This document shows positions 13,782 through 25,245 of a stretch of DNA of 37,976 bases, piece after piece. The DNA is from a virus (taxonomy: Duplodnaviria; Caudoviricetes): positions 1 to 37,976 of IMG/VR virus record IMGVR_UViG_3300043932_000064. One strand, given 5' to 3'. The notes beneath the pieces were generated by a model. That model was not told the origin of the DNA. It saw only the letters and a list, made by a program, of their open reading frames with translations, and did no database searches. Position numbers and translations under genes: made by a program. Within the stretch, counting starts at the first letter, position 1; each line of letters opens with the position of its first letter.

Positions 13782-13829
13782 AAAAAAATCTAAACTAAAA
13801 GGCGCTAGAGAATCGAACCCTAACGCCTT
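13782..13829 (-). terminator. Terminator-like hairpin capped by a TTCGATT T-loop after the major tail gene
   Basis: AAGGCGTTAGGG-TTCGATT-CTCTAGCGCCTT followed by TTAGTTTAGATTTTTTT. Confidence 0.7.
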
Positions 13830-13849: not shown

Positions 13850-14314
13850 TTATGAACCAGATACGGCCGTACCTGCTGGAGTGAAGTTAGGACCATCACT
13901 AACAGTAATAGTGATAGTGAACCCAACAGCCGCGTTGGTTGAAAGTGAATCCATCGCCAACGTTGCCCGGCCTTCAAATTGTGCGGTCATACCGTCTGGA
14001 TAGGTTACCTTAAATTGGTAAGTTACATTGTTATCACAGATTGCTTGCGCCTTCTTAAAGTTGTCGCCCTTGTAAACGCATTGGAAAGCCAGTGAAGAAC
14101 TCTGCTTAATACCTGGAATTTGCTTTTGCCGGGTATCTGCCAGCGTGGTTACATCAATAGTTTGTGGAGTACCGCCGACAGCTGGAATGGTCTTAACGTC
14201 CGTGATATCAGTCCACGCTTTGCCATCTTGAGAATATGATAGCTTGGTACCAGTACCGGCCAAACCATCGCTAGCGTCAACGCCTGCAAATTGTTGCAAC
14301 TTAAATTCTTGCAT
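13850..14314 (-). CDS. Major tail (tube) protein
   Basis: IPAVGGTPQTIDVTTL...GI...FKVTYPDG pattern of siphovirus tube proteins; position in tail module. Confidence 0.88.
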   Translation of the reverse strand: MQEFKLQQFAGVDASDGLAGTGTKLSYSQDGKAWTDITDVKTIPAVGGTPQTIDVTTLADTRQKQIPGIKQSSSLAFQCVYKGDNFKKAQAICDNNVTYQFKVTYPDGMTAQFEGRATLAMDSLSTNAAVGFTITITVSDGPNFTPAGTAVSGS

Positions 14315-14695: not shown

Positions 14696-15233
14696 TTAAC
14701 CCCTCCTTAACTCTTTTAGAAATGATTTCGTCTGCGTCACGTCCGGCCTTTTCGATCGCTGGCGTTAAGAATTGACGGGCTGGCTGGCCGTTTGTCCGAT
14801 AGAACTCTTTATCATGGATCTTGATTTTCTGCATACCGTAAATAGCGGTTAAATCAAGATCCACTTTATCAACTGGTATAAACCAGGTTGTTTGCCTATA
14901 GGTCAAAGTTACATTTGGCGGGGTGATTTTTGGCGACTTTTCACCATTGCGCCCGGTCCCAAATTCACGGTAAACGGCTATAGGGTCATTAGACCATAAC
15001 CGTCCAACAATTTCGCCGGTTGATTTTAGTTTAACTTCAGTTCTCAAAGATCTAGTTAATTCACCGGTGGAATACTTAATAGACTTTTGGAGTTCTTCAA
15101 CCGCGTAGGCTTCCGCCTGGTCCATTACGTCTTCTTCGCCGTCGTGGATTGCCTTTTCCGTGACACCAGGCAACTTTTTCAGCTTTTCCTGAAGTCGGTC
15201 AAGACCCTTGATTTCAAAGGAAAACTGCATCAC
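14682..15233 (-). CDS. HK97 gp10-like neck protein
   Basis: IKGLDRL, TGEL.RS, Y.EFGTG and PARQFLTPA motifs. Confidence 0.85.
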   Translation of the reverse strand: MMQFSFEIKGLDRLQEKLKKLPGVTEKAIHDGEEDVMDQAEAYAVEELQKSIKYSTGELTRSLRTEVKLKSTGEIVGRLWSNDPIAVYREFGTGRNGEKSPKITPPNVTLTYRQTTWFIPVDKVDLDLTAIYGMQKIKIHDKEFYRTNGQPARQFLTPAIEKAGRDADEIISKRVKEGLNENL

Positions 15234-18282: not shown

Positions 18283-18450
18283 TTATTTTCTTCCAGATTT
18301 CTTTTTCTTTATTCTTTCGTCAATAGCTTTCAGAACACGTTCTGTTTGCTTTTCGTCTTCTTCAGTAACTTGACTATAATCAAATTCAACACCATTAGTT
18401 GGTGCTTCCCGCCACCGCCGATCAGAATACGGCTTTTTATTTTGGCTCAT
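18283..18450 (-). CDS. 55-aa protein, candidate immunity partner of the MuF ADP-ribosyltransferase
   Basis: GGAGG RBS, overlaps the MuF stop; reads MSQNKKPYSDRRWREAPTNG...KKKSGRK*. Function inferred from position only. Confidence 0.65.
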   Translation of the reverse strand: MSQNKKPYSDRRWREAPTNGVEFDYSQVTEEDEKQTERVLKAIDERIKKKKSGRK

Positions 18451-19951
18451 TTAATTCCCTCCACTTCATCTGTATAATTCCATCGGAATCTTCCCATACA
18501 CTTTCGATTTTAAATCGTGTGTTTCTGCCAAATAAAACTTCTTGTTCTTGATTATTATACAGCGAAATGTCATGGCCGCTTACTGAATTTCTTATTTCAA
18601 CATGAATTTGTTCAGTTCCTTCGCCGTAATGTTCCTTAGAAGTAGAAATATAGCTTTGGTCTTTAAAAATACTGCCTTGCTTGTGTTCTTTTAAAAACTC
18701 TTTTACACCTTCATCTGTCATGAAATAGTCCCTTTGCAGTGGCCGAGTAGATGTATATGTTGGCAGCTTACTTAGAGCGGAATCAAGATCCTTAACCATT
18801 TCTTTATATGAATCTGACAGGCCATTAATTCCATGACTCCTTAGTTCATTATTCAATCTATAAGAATCTGAACTAAGATAACGATTCAAAGCATATTGCT
18901 CTGCATCAGTTAGTTTTGGAACCATAACGGCAACTGACCGACAAAAGGGATGCATTGGCGGAAAATTTTTGCCTGTCTGTGCTTTTACCACTTCTAATAC
19001 TTTTGCATTTAAAGACCGGCATATTTTGCTGGTGCGGTTGTCCAGAACTGCCACATAGCGATAATACTTTACACCTCTGGCTTTCCATCGGTCTATCTTG
19101 GCTTGGTTAGCCAAGTGTGCAGCTTCTGTTCGAATCAATCTCTTAGAATTAAATATTGATGTTTGAAACTCATCAGCTATCTTATTTGCTAAATCCGTTT
19201 CGCTCATTCCGGCTATTTCCTTGGCAGTAAAGAGTTCTCCTAAATGATTTGCCAATTGATCAGTATTATTCCAAATACGTTGAGAATAGTTACGGCCACT
19301 CCACTTGCGATTGGCTACTTTCTCAACATAATCTGCTGGAATTTCTTTTACTTCTTTAATTGGCTGGTCCTTTTGTACCTTAACGTCAGTGACTTTTTCA
19401 CCTTTCGAATTGTTCAAAGAGAGTTCGAATTCTTCACTAACGCTTTTGCCATTATTTGGCAGTTCAAACTCTTTACCAGTTTGATAAGCTATGCCTTCTT
19501 TGTCTGCCTGTTTCCAAGCTTGTTTAACTACTTCAGAATAGAGCTTTAAATTTTCTGCTTTTTCAGTAGCCCCAGCTGCTTTAGCAGAAATATATGCTTT
19601 AAATTTCCACTCATCCAGCCGAGTTATCCGGTTCTTTGCTGCAAGTTGACTAAGATAATCGCGTATAGCTTTCTTGCTTTCTCTGTCTTGAACAGTACTC
19701 GCTAATGACTTCAAAGCTACCATTTCCGAAGCCGAAATGGTGGAATTCAAAATTTTATTTGCGTCATCTTCACTAACCTGGCCATTAAAATAGCGCCGGT
19801 ATATTTGATCAGCTTGATCCATCAAATATATCTGCGCTTCTAGGTAGGCATTATTTATTTTTTTGAGATGCTCAGTTGTTTCGTCATAAGCTTGCTGCTC
19901 ATATTCCAAAGCTCTTAACGTCCAGTAGTCATCAATTTTATTCTTGCTCAT
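18437..19951 (-). CDS. Minor head protein (MuF/SPP1 gp7) with C-terminal ADP-ribosyltransferase domain
   Basis: RLIRTE, LDNRTSKIC and PPMHPFCRS MuF motifs, then Y..LN..LR, R, YISTS and QEQEVLF motifs of R-S-E type ARTs. Confidence 0.88.
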   Translation of the reverse strand: MSKNKIDDYWTLRALEYEQQAYDETTEHLKKINNAYLEAQIYLMDQADQIYRRYFNGQVSEDDANKILNSTISASEMVALKSLASTVQDRESKKAIRDYLSQLAAKNRITRLDEWKFKAYISAKAAGATEKAENLKLYSEVVKQAWKQADKEGIAYQTGKEFELPNNGKSVSEEFELSLNNSKGEKVTDVKVQKDQPIKEVKEIPADYVEKVANRKWSGRNYSQRIWNNTDQLANHLGELFTAKEIAGMSETDLANKIADEFQTSIFNSKRLIRTEAAHLANQAKIDRWKARGVKYYRYVAVLDNRTSKICRSLNAKVLEVVKAQTGKNFPPMHPFCRSVAVMVPKLTDAEQYALNRYLSSDSYRLNNELRSHGINGLSDSYKEMVKDLDSALSKLPTYTSTRPLQRDYFMTDEGVKEFLKEHKQGSIFKDQSYISTSKEHYGEGTEQIHVEIRNSVSGHDISLYNNQEQEVLFGRNTRFKIESVWEDSDGIIQMKWRELNEPK

Positions 19952-21685: not shown

Positions 21686-22981
21686 CTATCCTCTGAAGTA
21701 GCTTGGCTTAGCTTTAACTCTAACTTTGGCTCTTCGCATAATGTCGTAAAAGGCGTAACGTGTAGCGTCAATAGTATGGTTATTCTTGTCTTCTAGTCTT
21801 GCTTGAGGCTCACCGTTTCTGTCAGTAGCAAAGTCGATATTTTCAAATTCCCAGGCAATGCTTGGCGTTCTAACCGGATCAATTATTATTGCGTCGAGAT
21901 CTTCTAACCATCGTTCACCAAACTCAACGCTGTCTGGCCCTTTCTTTGCAGGTCGTGCTTTAGAAATGCCGTATTCTCTGAGCTCAGCTATAGATTTTGG
22001 CTCAGCAGAGTCACAATAGATCAATTGATATTGGTAGCCATGACCTTTCAACCACTGTGCACATTTTCTATTGCTTACTTGGAGCTTATATAGCTCGTCT
22101 ACTGCGTAAATTGTCCGGTGACGTTCATCGTAAGCCCACCGAACGAAAGCCAGCTGGTCGTTAGCAAAACCAAAGTCAAGGCCATTAACAAACGTGTCCA
22201 TCGTGTCCAGCAAATCATCGGTGACATAGTTCTTGATGATTTTCAGATTGTCAAATGGTTCAACGCCAGAGCCGACTGTTTCACCCATATATTCCCAGCG
22301 GTAACGACGCTCATTTGTCTTTTTAGCTGCCTCTGCTTCGATCTTGAATTCCTTGGCAACAAATGGATTGTCCAAATATGTTGTATGATGGACAACCGTA
22401 TTGTCTGGCAACATAGAAGAATTGTATTTCTTATTTACCCAGCTTTGCTTCCGCTTTGGTGGGTTGTAGCTGTAGAAGAATTTATAATGGCAGCCTTCAG
22501 GAAGCTCACCACGAAGCAATGAGTTAGTAATTGTAGTTACGTCAGATTCTTTCTTAAATTCAGCCAGCTCTTCAATCCACGCAATCGCAAATGGAAAGCG
22601 ACTGTCTTTCAAAGATTTGATTCGTTCCGGATCTTGTGCGCCTCTGAAAGTAATGTAATTTCCTCTGGGCAAATAGGTTAACTGCATCGGGTTTTTGGTT
22701 TGCTTCCATAAGTGACTAACGCCCTGTTCTTCGATTGCCCACTTCAATTGTTCAAAGACTGATAACCGAACCGTGTTCTCGACTGCTCTAATCGCTACTG
22801 CGTTGACAGGTTCTCGCATAAGCAGCTGCACAATTACGTGCGCAATGTCGGAGGACTTGCCAGAGCCACGGCCACCTTTTTCAACAATATTGAGCTTGGA
22901 TGGATCCATAGCTGCACGCCACAAAGAATAAAAAGCTGGCGGAAGAAAATCGCTAATCCTCTTCTGAATGACTTGCATCAT
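21686..22981 (-). CDS. terL: Terminase large subunit (PBSX family)
   Basis: GGRGSGKS Walker A, WIEE Walker B, SYNP, GLDFG and NNHTIDATRYA; GAAGGTG RBS before ATG 22981/22978. Confidence 0.95.
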   Translation of the reverse strand: MMQVIQKRISDFLPPAFYSLWRAAMDPSKLNIVEKGGRGSGKSSDIAHVIVQLLMREPVNAVAIRAVENTVRLSVFEQLKWAIEEQGVSHLWKQTKNPMQLTYLPRGNYITFRGAQDPERIKSLKDSRFPFAIAWIEELAEFKKESDVTTITNSLLRGELPEGCHYKFFYSYNPPKRKQSWVNKKYNSSMLPDNTVVHHTTYLDNPFVAKEFKIEAEAAKKTNERRYRWEYMGETVGSGVEPFDNLKIIKNYVTDDLLDTMDTFVNGLDFGFANDQLAFVRWAYDERHRTIYAVDELYKLQVSNRKCAQWLKGHGYQYQLIYCDSAEPKSIAELREYGISKARPAKKGPDSVEFGERWLEDLDAIIIDPVRTPSIAWEFENIDFATDRNGEPQARLEDKNNHTIDATRYAFYDIMRRAKVRVKAKPSYFRG

Positions 22982-23501
22982 GTTCACCTTCCGAAATGTC
23001 ATCAATAAACTCAATTCTTGAAAGTGCAGCCTCTTCATGTTCTTCCACGCGCTTTGCAGTAGCTTCAGAAATCTGTGCTTCTGCTTCCGCTTTACGGGCC
23101 TCAGCTTGCGTTTTAAGTTCAAGTGCGGCTTGCATCTTAGAAGATACCGGAAACCTCTTTCCAAGCTCTCTGAGGGCCGCTAGGCGGTCGCTGGTACGAG
23201 TTTTTAGAGTAACCACATCGCCATTATTTGCCAATTGCTCTTCGGTTGTCTCCCCTCTCGCAATGGAGGTGAGAGTTTGAAGATATTCAACCGCATCCAT
23301 GATCTTATGAGACTCAATCTCTGCCATCTTTTCATCGATAGCTTTCTTAACCCGATCATTTCGCAACAATCTAGCAGCTAAAGTGCTAGCTGTATTTCCA
23401 TTTTTGGCAGAGTAACCAGCAGACAAATAGGATTGAGTAGCATTTCCAGTTTTCACATATTCAGCTACGAATTTTCTTTGCTTAGCTGTTAATTCATCCA
23501 G
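22953..23501 (-). CDS. terS: Terminase small subunit (probable CTG start)
   Basis: LT.KQ.KF..EY...GNATQ....AGYS...A.RLL motif; AGGAGG 8 nt before CTG 23501. Confidence 0.92.
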   Translation of the reverse strand: MDELTAKQRKFVAEYVKTGNATQSYLSAGYSAKNGNTASTLAARLLRNDRVKKAIDEKMAEIESHKIMDAVEYLQTLTSIARGETTEEQLANNGDVVTLKTRTSDRLAALRELGKRFPVSSKMQAALELKTQAEARKAEAEAQISEATAKRVEEHEEAALSRIEFIDDISEGEHDASHSEED

Positions 23502-23523: not shown

Positions 23524-23553
23524 AAAGAAAAAAAGACAGCCGTTAAGCTGTCC
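23524..23553 (-). terminator. Intrinsic terminator between the late leader and terS
   Basis: GACAGC-TTAACG-GCTGTC followed by TTTTTTTCTTT. Confidence 0.75.
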
Positions 23554-23924
23554 GTAAAAGCACCGCCTTGTAAATATTGTACCTTCCGCTGTAGAAGACT
23601 AGTTTTTAATAATAATTCTGGTGCTTTTTATAGCACGTCCAGGAATCGAACCTGGATAATCCAATCGTGCCGGCCATAGCTGAAGGCAATATCCAGCCTG
23701 GCTCTTATTTATTGTTACAAGCTTGTCCGTAGTAACCTACAAACAAGAAAATCTGACAAGTGTTGCATGACCCGTCAGATCATCGCTAATTGTTAATCGG
23801 GATCTACAAACTTGATTTGCAATTAGCATACATGCCTCGCTCTCTCTATGTGTCCCGCATTGGTCCCCGCAGGGATCCCAACACTCTCTAAGTAAAGAAC
23901 ACTGTCAAGGTCATCGCAAGGCTA

Positions 23925-23996
23925 CAGAAACAGTTGGAATCGAACCAACTTCTCAGATTTTGGAGACCTGCATTTTGCCGATTAAACTATGTTTCT
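23925..23996 (-). tRNA. tRNA-Trp (CCA)
   Basis: Acceptor AGAAACA/TGTTTCT, D arm GTTT..AAAT, anticodon arm CAGGT-CTCCAAA-ATCTG, T arm GTTGG-TTCGATT-CCAAC, discriminator G; 3' CCA not encoded. Confidence 0.92.
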
Positions 23997-24705
23997 AAAA
24001 CGCCGTCCCATGGTGACGGCTACGAGAACTTAGACCAGAAGCAGCTGTCTTCCGGCCTTCGTAAGAGACCAGCTCTTTTCAATTGGAACATTCACGGACT
24101 CTGCCGCTGTTTTCCCTGAACCCGCGTATGGCTTAAAGCACTCGCTATACTGAGCACCAGCCAGGGACCGGCTCATAAGGTTGAGCCCTGGAATCGCACC
24201 AGAGCCGCTAGGGAAAGATTGAATACACGGGCGCTTGCCTCAACCTACAAAAATAATGTGAGTAATGTACTTGGACCTAATACTACAAATACTTAAATAT
24301 CGCCTGGAACGCCCAGGCTATGGACCATGTACGAGTCGAACGTAATAGGTCCTATGATAGCTGCAGAGAAGTTTGTCATTGCTTAAAGAAACGCTCATCT
24401 CAAGATGGTGTAAATAACTACTAAGGAGATAATTAATGACAAAGTATAGAGATAACGCACATATAGCGGCTATCAATGCCCAGCCAGGGAGTCGAACCCT
24501 GACCAGATACCAGCTTGATCTGCCAAATGACATTGATGATAAAAGACTGCGGGACCGCCCACAGTTTGAGCACTCGCTCTAAGCTGGCTGCCGGAGTTGA
24601 ACCGGCCAAGGGGCCGTGCCAGCTGACATTGTGTTGTAGTTATAGTTGTAAGTGATTTTTTCCGAATTGGAGGAACATCAATGTGAAAAAGAAAAGCATC
24701 ATCCA

Positions 24706-24745
24706 TCGAAAGCCTAAACTTTCGACACTACCATAGTAGCGCATT
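24706..24745 (-). promoter_or_regulatory. Putative activator-dependent late promoter and 5' hairpin
   Basis: -10-like TACTAT (24738-24733) just after the ArpU stop, no clear -35, followed by hairpin TCGAAAG-TTTAGG-CTTTCGA. Confidence 0.5.
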
Positions 24746-25245
24746 CAAGCTTGCAGTTGGCTAGGTGTTTCCTGGCAGAAAACTGTTAGTTCAGGGAGCT
24801 CTTTAAGTCCAAACGAGTCCTTGGAGAAGTCGTAGTTCTCAGCGAATTCGCATAGTGCATCAACCTTGTGCGGTGCCAAACTGTCCACTTCCCAGCCAAG
24901 GCGCGGGGCTACGATCTTGTCTGGCTTGCGTTCGATATAGCACTCAATAACGATAGTCTTATGAAAGTGGTAGAACTCGCTGTCAACCATCACTCCCACT
25001 GCGTGTTGGATGCAGTCGAAAAGCCGCTCATATAGTTCTCGATCGTTTAAGTGGTTAACTAGACTGATTTCCGTCGCATTTTTTGGCGATCCACTACTCC
25101 CACCAGTCGAAGATGAATAGTCAATGCCGGTTAGATCTGTCAGTGGTCTCCCAGCTCTAGCCATGATGTGCGGTAAATCCTTAATCAGTAGCTCCCTGGC
25201 GTTGGCCGCCGTTGCTACTCGGTCGATAGGTGCAAACAAGCTCAT
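24745..25245 (-). CDS. ArpU-family late transcriptional activator
   Basis: LF..ID...TA.NAR..L N-terminus, I....Y and K..AL.EFAE C-terminus; last gene before the packaging module; AGGAGG before ATG 25245. Confidence 0.8.
   Translation of the reverse strand: MSLFAPIDRVATAANARELLIKDLPHIMARAGRPLTDLTGIDYSSSTGGSSGSPKNATEISLVNHLNDRELYERLFDCIQHAVGVMVDSEFYHFHKTIVIECYIERKPDKIVAPRLGWEVDSLAPHKVDALCEFAENYDFSKDSFGLKELPELTVFCQETPSQLQA

Follow-up and report, generated by a model that had tools for sequence, protein, structure and literature searches.

The minus-strand gap between a gene for an ArpU-like late transcriptional activator and the terminase small subunit gene (terS) of a temperate Lactobacillus phage (Caudoviricetes) holds an array of six tRNA-like units: one tRNA-Trp gene and five non-decoding elements, E1 to E5. 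The phage is IMG/VR virus record IMGVR_UViG_3300043932_000064 (G000), whose 37,976 nucleotides (nt) were analysed as a whole and are called the window below. Judged by their sequence, the elements keep the T-loop, a 12-13-base-pair (bp) acceptor/T stack, the discriminator base (N73), and a CCA-less trailer beginning with U74, and have dropped the anticodon arm; those with short linkers appear to retain a D-loop-like GG as well. The elements are uncatalogued in Rfam 15, and the layout is widespread in prophages of Lactobacillaceae and of pyogenic streptococci. We predict with good confidence that the elements are cut, and consider it about an even bet (probability roughly 0.5) that they act as cutting marks that delimit and mature the RNAs next to them.

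A scan for T-loop, T-stem, and acceptor returned six units in 23524-24727 (minus strand), tRNA-Trp included. The loop pattern was chosen so as to include the TGCGA variant present in the window; with it, 2000 dinucleotide shuffles gave on average 0.07 units by the T-arm only and 0.03 with the acceptor, at most 2, and none of the 2000 reached 6. Counting 13 nt from the T-loop to the discriminator, as in a tRNA, puts N73 at 24582, 24477, 24321, 24179, 23925 (tRNA-Trp), and 23631, and the next base is U74 in all six units and the start of a CCA in none. An earlier note on this DNA had described tRNA-Trp plus five T-loop elements on the minus strand, most with an acceptor-like stem on a T-arm and with the D and anticodon arms lost or substituted by other sequence; sequence check and scan place all of them at or near the positions it gave, with the acceptor/T stack in tRNA register and no anticodon loop. 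Individual elements fold no better than shuffles (z from -0.5 to -2.3), and since energy alone does not set them apart, the evidence for them lies in motif, register, and repetition. At gathering score, Rfam reports only tRNA-Trp in the window (23925-23996, 63.4 bits), and at E≤10 nothing else there is credible, so that the Rfam search proposed in the earlier note yields no full-length family match in the window besides tRNA-Trp. That gene has the cloverleaf, the 7-nt anticodon loop, and the above-threshold covariance-model score of a tRNA (RF00005); E1-E5 receive neither an ARAGORN nor an Rfam tRNA call (E≤10) and do not count as tRNAs. Homologous loci (20 searched at gathering score and 16 at E≤5, in overlapping sets) likewise match tRNA only, weak matches to wcaG, Plastid-ycf2, mascRNA, and LPR69 being taken as chance, and blastn of the array region against 50,697 phage records found two tRNA-Trp matches and nothing else.

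A non-circular test was made on a set assembled with the nine-letter T-loop motif as sole criterion and no pairing filter, from which called tRNAs, the window, its near-copies (loci L004, L005, L014, and L173), and near-duplicates were excluded. This selection yields 144 sense and 2 antisense elements. The three free T-stem pairs form in 135, 133, and 127 of the 144 (shuffle maxima 75, 76, and 79) and use all six pair types. A 5' partner of positions 66-72 is present in 103 (mean 17 and maximum 29 with swapped strands), the signal being highest at register 0/+1, that is, in tRNA register. Position 74 is U in 123 elements against a background of 29%, C in 3, and part of a CCA in none; this resembles the tRNA genes of the hosts, which lack an encoded CCA in 28 of 28 examined (of 49 matches) and have U74 in 26. 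Between acceptor and T-arm the 103 paired elements range from no linker at all (a pure minihelix) through linkers of 9-20 nt and D-arm-only forms to long forms, and the lengths cluster, at 9-20 nt in 39 and at 0-2 nt in 8. Of 32 short linkers, 31 contain a GG, compared with a mean of 20 and a maximum of 28 after shuffling. In 24 it stands at linker position 3-4, and by position it is the likely counterpart of the elbow G18-G19. On the 5' side, the base at -1 is U in 49 of 103 and that at +1 is G in 54. No shared aminoacylation identity was found among the 103: G3:U70 occurs in 2 and G-1:C73 in 4. The covariation analysis of related ArpU-terS gaps that the earlier note had proposed thus shows a covarying T-stem and acceptor pairing in tRNA register.

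Matches to the ArpU model TIGR01637 occur in 166 of 351 Lactobacillaceae genomes. The 110 ArpU loci analysed are 30 plus the 80 top-ranked among 150 matches listed (with 125 further), some loci at contig ends having been skipped. Within 1.5 kilobases (kb) of ArpU lie 126 elements in the sense-downstream segment, 23 of them ARAGORN tRNAs, compared with 5, 4, and 8 in control segments of about 160 kb each (upstream-sense, downstream-antisense, and upstream-antisense). At least one non-tRNA element is present in 69 of the 110 loci and at least two in 22. The named phages JCL1032, phiJB, KC5a, and JNU_P7 all carry elements (4/4), as do six in a second set of ten (JNU_P4, Lj928, phiadh, J-1, G2-Guo, and phiNIH1.1), the remaining four of which, phiFL1A, 2972, phi9805, and the truncated EV3, have none. 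Across the class Bacilli at large, an element is found in 1 of the 30 best ArpU loci. The streptococcal ArpU gap matches 131 Streptococcus phage records, mostly piecewise.

The array is bounded as one unit. A late-promoter motif with a -10-type hexamer is found in sense at 93 of 139 ArpU loci, in antisense at none, and further downstream at 7 of 132, by a matrix trained on the same 139 loci; the predicted promoter of the window scores 20.6 with a matrix trained without the window and its three near-copies. (An earlier strict regular expression found the motif at 12 of 144 loci, and the literal pattern at 0.) Wherever a locus has both, the motif lies 5' of the first element (73/73). Of 92 loci, 53 have a terminator-like site downstream of the last element (5 in antisense); between elements such a site occurs in 2 of 54. 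In the window, folding of the whole leader predicts local hairpins one after another. Over the loci compared, 71 of 99 trailers begin to pair no more than 4 nt after the predicted cut.

Units within the array also trade places. The slot of E3 is occupied by three unrelated elements in the window, L005, and L014, with one and the same trailer behind each, and a tRNA-Asn in L042 takes the slot, in front of the same trailer, that holds a non-decoding element in L041 and L044. One element (L113) encloses a complete tRNA that its counterpart in L067 lacks, and elements with a tRNA-Leu-type D arm and a TGCAAAT T-loop flank large variable inserts in L113, L042, L055, L075, and L122. Comparison among nine streptococcal gaps gives 113 internal homology breakpoints, of which 34 lie in the T-arm or trailer (12% expected); the pairs compared are not independent. 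In Javan489 (L262) and Javan488 (L265) the arrays have collapsed by crossover in the T-loop motif, leaving chimeric elements that are unpaired.

These features suggest a pathway in which ArpU would drive a single leader transcript of about 1.2 kb, RNase Z would cleave 3' of N73, and RNase P would cleave at +1 of each element. The trailer hairpin would then end up at a new 5' terminus and might protect the downstream piece from a 5' exonuclease such as RNase J1, which is hindered by a hairpin at the 5' end. The products would be mini-tRNA tops, probably CCA-tailed, and spacer RNAs such as a kink-turn-like module; the common T-arm motif may double as a crossover point, which would account for the swapping of modules. 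The enzymology is compatible with such a scheme: excerpts from the literature describe RNase Z of a lactic acid bacterium cleaving CCA-less precursors directly 3' of the discriminator (PMC8549757), and RNase P cleaving acceptor-plus-T hairpins at a distance gauged from the elbow, the D-loop being dispensable (PMC11143913, PMC4919913). What favours processing over the readings weighed below is the combination of tRNA register, CCA-less U74, linker GG, post-cut hairpins, a unit running from promoter to terminator, and the interchange of tRNAs and mimics. The proposal in the earlier note that the minihelices are processing signals is thus the best-supported reading of the sequence, the cuts being predicted ones.

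Transcript data from homologues offer a partial view. RNA runs were sought for one homologue, L042; 22 are listed, all as contigs, and four were examined, without a DNA control. Run X13 contains short contigs of depth 1130-3990 over positions 313-441, the long flanking contigs averaging 44 and 165, and one of its contigs ends in adapter at 313/314. That position, where no terminator lies, is the predicted N73/C72 boundary of a non-decoding element, and the end gives a weak hint of a cut. In streptococci, the probe of the published 84-nt small RNA Spy_sRNA544833 (PMC4829319) places that RNA in the first leader module of Javan488; the RNA has its 5' end within 15196-15206, in agreement with a predicted promoter start at about 15203. 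It speaks for the promoter and for a discrete leader RNA made in a lysogen, not for a specific cut.

Several observations weigh against the elements as cutting marks. Run X12 has an adapter-marked end at 375, internal to the element; runs X10 and X14 continue unbroken through it; and the deep X13 piece runs 15 nt beyond the predicted RNase P site. RNA ends are not provable here because the data are assembled contigs. The 3' end of Spy_sRNA544833 lies 8-18 nt short of the +1 of the adjoining element; since that element is a broken chimera, the end need not have been made by RNase P. B-type RNase P may need contacts with a 3'-CCA, to go by an excerpt of PMC1874595, and the element precursors, without CCA, would lack them. 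No non-tRNA element is present in 41 of the 110 ArpU loci, and the elements must therefore be dispensable in many phages. Folding is more stable than in shuffles for the trailers (mean z -1.36) and also for the leaders before elements (-0.86), so that a hairpin in the trailer is a signal of no more than partial specificity. In the window, about 2-5 unpaired A's precede pairing in the trailer of E5, and 5 nt in that of E4. As for ROOL or GOLLD as a cargo framed by elements, the model of the prophage RNA ROOL matches in 3 of 151 family genomes, and only one of the three loci has an element nearby, namely a 12-bp minihelix with A73/U74 at about 2075-2107 of L207, on the ROOL strand, 41 nt downstream of ROOL. 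Finally, certain element families preserve their interior sequence, which would make the elements themselves perhaps the products.

That last point leads to an alternative that we hold to be rather doubtful but not far-fetched, in which the mini-tRNAs are what the array is for: excised and CCA-tailed, they would act as decoys or titrators of proteins that read the acceptor end or the elbow, and the spacers would be incidental. Toxins that modify the acceptor end, of the toxSAS and MenT kind, are candidate targets; at the same modest odds, the CCA enzyme, RNase Z, or RNase P could be targets instead. Such decoys would make sense of the retained elbow GG, of interior sequences preserved across species in several families, of the many distinct acceptor sequences that an array carries, like a decoy panel, of expression from a predicted late promoter, and of Rfam families, taken to be tRNA-like, that occur in phages. 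They sit less well with the conserved structures of the spacers themselves (the kink-turn-like module and recurrent hairpins), with a lone minihelix, E6, between two tail-region genes, and with the want of a shared identity element among the 103 (G3:U70 in 2, G-1:C73 in 4). The earlier note had considered decoys for tRNA-targeting nucleases in general; since the elements have no anticodon loop, decoying of anticodon nucleases is unlikely, and the acceptor-end type is still a candidate. Less probable again is a role in transcription or at the DNA level, with the leader acting in antitermination or anti-pausing past the terminator before terS, or the elements serving as crossover marks for cassette exchange. 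A strong terminator-like site does adjoin terS, streptococcal breakpoints are enriched in the T-arm and trailer, and two arrays are T-loop crossovers. Neither function, however, needs a discriminator, a U74, or a 12-bp ruler, and the number of elements varies from 0 to more than 5 with the late operon unchanged; because a crossover within the T-loop abolishes pairing, cassette exchange looks like a by-product.

Decay of tRNA genes is a quite unlikely origin of the elements, which would then be the remains of a tRNA island and persist through recent ancestry alone. A complete series, D-arm-only forms included, links real tRNAs to minihelices, several interiors are evidently tRNA-derived, Javan488 and Javan489 contain broken chimeras, and E3 is degenerate. 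Decay would not be expected to keep T-stem covariation, an in-register acceptor, U74, and GG across unrelated sequences, to remove the anticodon arm cleanly, or to leave clustered linker lengths. The reading is largely refuted for the class, although single members such as E3 may be relics, and the argument of the earlier note against simple tRNA decay is borne out by covariation in 144 elements picked without a pairing filter. Pairing is imperfect in E3 itself, whose T-stem is 4 bp long and whose minihelix contains a 3x3 internal loop. The idea, also raised there, of one large structured non-coding RNA of the GOLLD or ROOL kind with several T-loops has become very improbable: the neighbourhood is similar, prophage sequence near tRNAs (bioRxiv 10.1101/2024.12.08.627333 and PMC5737381, in excerpt), but Rfam matches no such family in the window or the homologous loci, modules swap, insert, and delete independently between near-identical phages, and the predicted fold contains only local hairpins in series. 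More improbable still are trailers that are hepatitis delta virus (HDV)-like theta ribozymes trimming the tRNA-like 3' ends by self-cleavage. Theta ribozymes do occur at tRNA 3' ends in gut phages, but the trailers here are simple hairpins without an Rfam ribozyme match, and an HDV/theta descriptor, run without a positive control, had no match in the window and 8 loose ones over 144 loci, none of which starts at a cut.

On the preferred reading, elements as cutting marks, the leader of the window can be followed along the minus strand as a series of marks and spacers. The predicted late-promoter motif (24719-24740) has its -10 hexamer TACTAT at 24738-24733 and a predicted start at about 24726, from which the whole-leader fold begins with a 5'-terminal hairpin (24705-24726). 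E1 (24582-24624; N73 at 24582, U74), with acceptor, short GG linker, and T-arm, is identical to its L004 counterpart at 42 of 43 positions. Behind it two predicted hairpins occupy 24546-24579, of which the second has a short U run and resembles a terminator; both are conserved in L004 through pair-preserving changes in an alignment judged by eye. E2 is drawn here as an 11-bp T-loop minihelix at 24477-24508 (N73 at 24477, U74). The element boundaries of the earlier note are otherwise mostly right, but its longer E2 acceptor (24536-24473; TCAATGTC/GGCATTGA) has two mismatches in the close relative L004, which retains the 11-bp hairpin around the T-loop with three pair-preserving changes (again aligned by eye); the shorter hairpin is preferred for this reason and the longer acceptor dropped. 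E3 (24321-24352; N73 at 24321, U74) is the degenerate 12-bp minihelix, and 2 nt past its predicted cut a hairpin starts in the predicted fold (24302-24318). E4 (24179-24245; N73 at 24179, U74) combines an acceptor, a 34-nt interior, and a T-arm with a TGCGATT loop, and is 94% identical in L004, L005, and L014. The structured spacer from E4 to tRNA-Trp (23997-24178), a candidate released RNA according to its fold and its relatives, is about 80 nt longer in relatives. The tRNA-Trp(CCA) gene (23925-23996; called by ARAGORN and, at 63.4 bits, by RF00005) does not encode its CCA and has U74.

Two nt past the predicted cut of tRNA-Trp starts a module (23834-23922) found by descriptor, with a C-stem GCCTTGC/GCGAGGC, a GAT bulge, and tandem GA pairs, which we take to be kink-turn-like from general rules for such motifs. 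Over 147 loci the descriptor gives 20 sense and 0 antisense matches whose stems covary; 9 of them start no more than 6 nt from a cut, and the window and near-copies account for five of these. The module, which contains a variable insert and has no Rfam entry, is present in the window, L173, L175, L192-L194, L197, and L096, and further in L105, L122, L204, L250, and L252. A second recurrent spacer, a hairpin with a CGGAAA loop and a covarying stem, lies directly 3' of a predicted cut in L172, L177, L179, L184, L188, L194, L195, L059, L060, and L245. Downstream of the kink-turn-like module in the window, a hairpin cluster upstream of E5 (23680-23820; z -3.0) is unlike in sequence in close relatives. 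In E5 (23631-23671; N73 at 23631, U74) acceptor and T-stem stack as 6+6 bp and the GG linker is 9 nt long; the element is also kept in L007, a locus with a 75% identical terS. The long hairpin 3' of it (23556-23628) pairs GCACC with GGTGC, replaced by GCGCC/GGCGC in L007. The leader closes with an intrinsic-terminator-like hairpin and U tract (23524-23553), similar sequence being present in several other loci; it immediately precedes the terS ribosome-binding site. Outside the array, in the tail region, the gap that follows the gene at 13850-14314 contains E6 (13798-13829, minus strand), a solitary T-loop minihelix of 12 perfect bp with U74, kept in L208-L210 despite the differing flanks of L209 and L210. 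It could be an mRNA end-setter within the late operon or a terminator bearing a T-loop.

The surrounding genes are those of a temperate phage, a PHROG scan finding repressor, antirepressor, replication, packaging, head, tail, and lysis genes. The ArpU-like gene (24745-25245, minus strand) encodes 166 amino acids (aa) from its likely start, matches phrog_248 at E 4e-20, and has homologues of 165-166 aa; against TIGR01637 it scores E 1.9e-8, under the curated cut-off. In phages of Gram-positive bacteria, a late promoter upstream of terS is activated by ArpU-family proteins, as an excerpt of PMC3753634 puts it. The terS gene (22953-23501, minus strand; phrog_51, E 4e-39) is 99% identical to terS in Lactobacillus equicursoris and has an apparent CTG start, a start that also appears in L007. 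Three small open reading frames of the leader (77, 71, and 48 aa) were rejected as genes because the two scanned against PHROG gave no match and frame or length shifts in L004, L005, and L014. Elsewhere, at 18437-19951 (minus strand), a MuF-like minor head protein has a C-terminal extension weakly like an ADP-ribosyltransferase family (phrog_3895, E 1e-4).

By analogy, the array may work like the t-elements of plant mitochondria, the ends being predicted here. An excerpt of PMC1920247 describes t-elements as non-canonical tRNA-like structures, down to acceptor-like stem-loops, that carry a GGTTCRANYCC motif, match transcript ends, and are thought to guide RNase Z and RNase P cuts. Both kinds have a T-arm motif on an acceptor-like stem in tRNA register and are non-decoding, with a non-canonical cloverleaf; t-elements, however, punctuate organellar mRNAs and have mapped ends, whereas the phage elements are tandem, swappable, and mostly set between non-coding spacers. 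Classes of tRNA-like RNA with a similar design are already catalogued, of the salivarius-1 kind. Salivarius-1 occurs in one Lactobacillaceae genome in tandem copies 150-430 nt apart (L253-L261), with a hairpin or spacer behind each. The copies resemble the array elements in lacking an anticodon and in their discriminator, U74, and end stem of 7 bp, but they have TTTGAG loops instead of a canonical T-loop; unlike the catalogued families, the array elements form no sequence family and sit behind ArpU promoters. The models of salivarius-1 (RF03030), DUF2693-FD (RF02926), and skipping-rope (RF02924) have no match in the window at E≤10. YrlA, a Y RNA with a tRNA-like domain, occurs in phages, and the RNA of M. 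smegmatis is cleaved by RNase P and receives CCA (PMC4201824, in excerpt); on the same account it differs in its circularly permuted domains, its Ro60-binding module, and a neighbouring Ro60 gene, and neither an Rfam match to YrlA in the window nor a Ro60 among 30 window proteins scanned against PHROGs (a subset of the open reading frames) was found. GOLLD (RF02032) and ROOL (RF03087), too, are prophage RNAs near tRNA islands, but, as excerpts describe them (bioRxiv 10.1101/2024.12.08.627333, PMC12990946, PMC5737381), they are single large conserved folds, unlike the array; the GOLLD model, run without a positive control, matches 0 of the 151 family genomes. Transfer-messenger RNA (tmRNA) was sought in the window and yielded no ARAGORN call, no tag open reading frame, and no G3:U70, and a mascRNA match in one homologue (E 2.4) was set aside as chance-level. 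The tRNA clusters of T4 and T5 hold stable tRNA-like RNAs, and mascRNA, menRNA, and the tRNA-like domain of tmRNA are top-half mimics processed by tRNA enzymes, all in other hosts and contexts than the array. In openly licensed literature, searched without the names of catalogued tRNA-like RNAs, no description of such arrays was found, and PMC10117718 contained nothing that bears on them.

Tentatively, we see in these leaders a modular small-RNA cassette at the head of the late operon of temperate lactic-acid-bacterial phages, in which tRNA-top marks, interchangeable and fitted to the CCA-less RNase Z code of the host, may release uncatalogued RNAs and crossovers in the T-arm may shuffle the cassettes. 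The RNAs might comprise kink-turn modules, hairpin RNAs, CCA-tailed mini-tRNAs, and nested tRNAs, released at the time of packaging, and their purpose might be to neutralise host defence or to retune translation. If this is true, tRNA punctuation, best known from organelles, would be routine in most of the Lactobacillaceae prophages examined and in pyogenic-streptococcal prophages, and the unannotated gap between activator and terS in the well-studied phages phiadh, J-1, Lj928, KC5a, JCL1032, and phiJB would encode several processed small RNAs. The predicted cut sites are exact and can be checked by experiment, and the elements would give bacterial RNase Z and B-type RNase P minimal substrates of natural origin. 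The reading would also suggest that some phage tRNA genes are retained for processing as much as for decoding.

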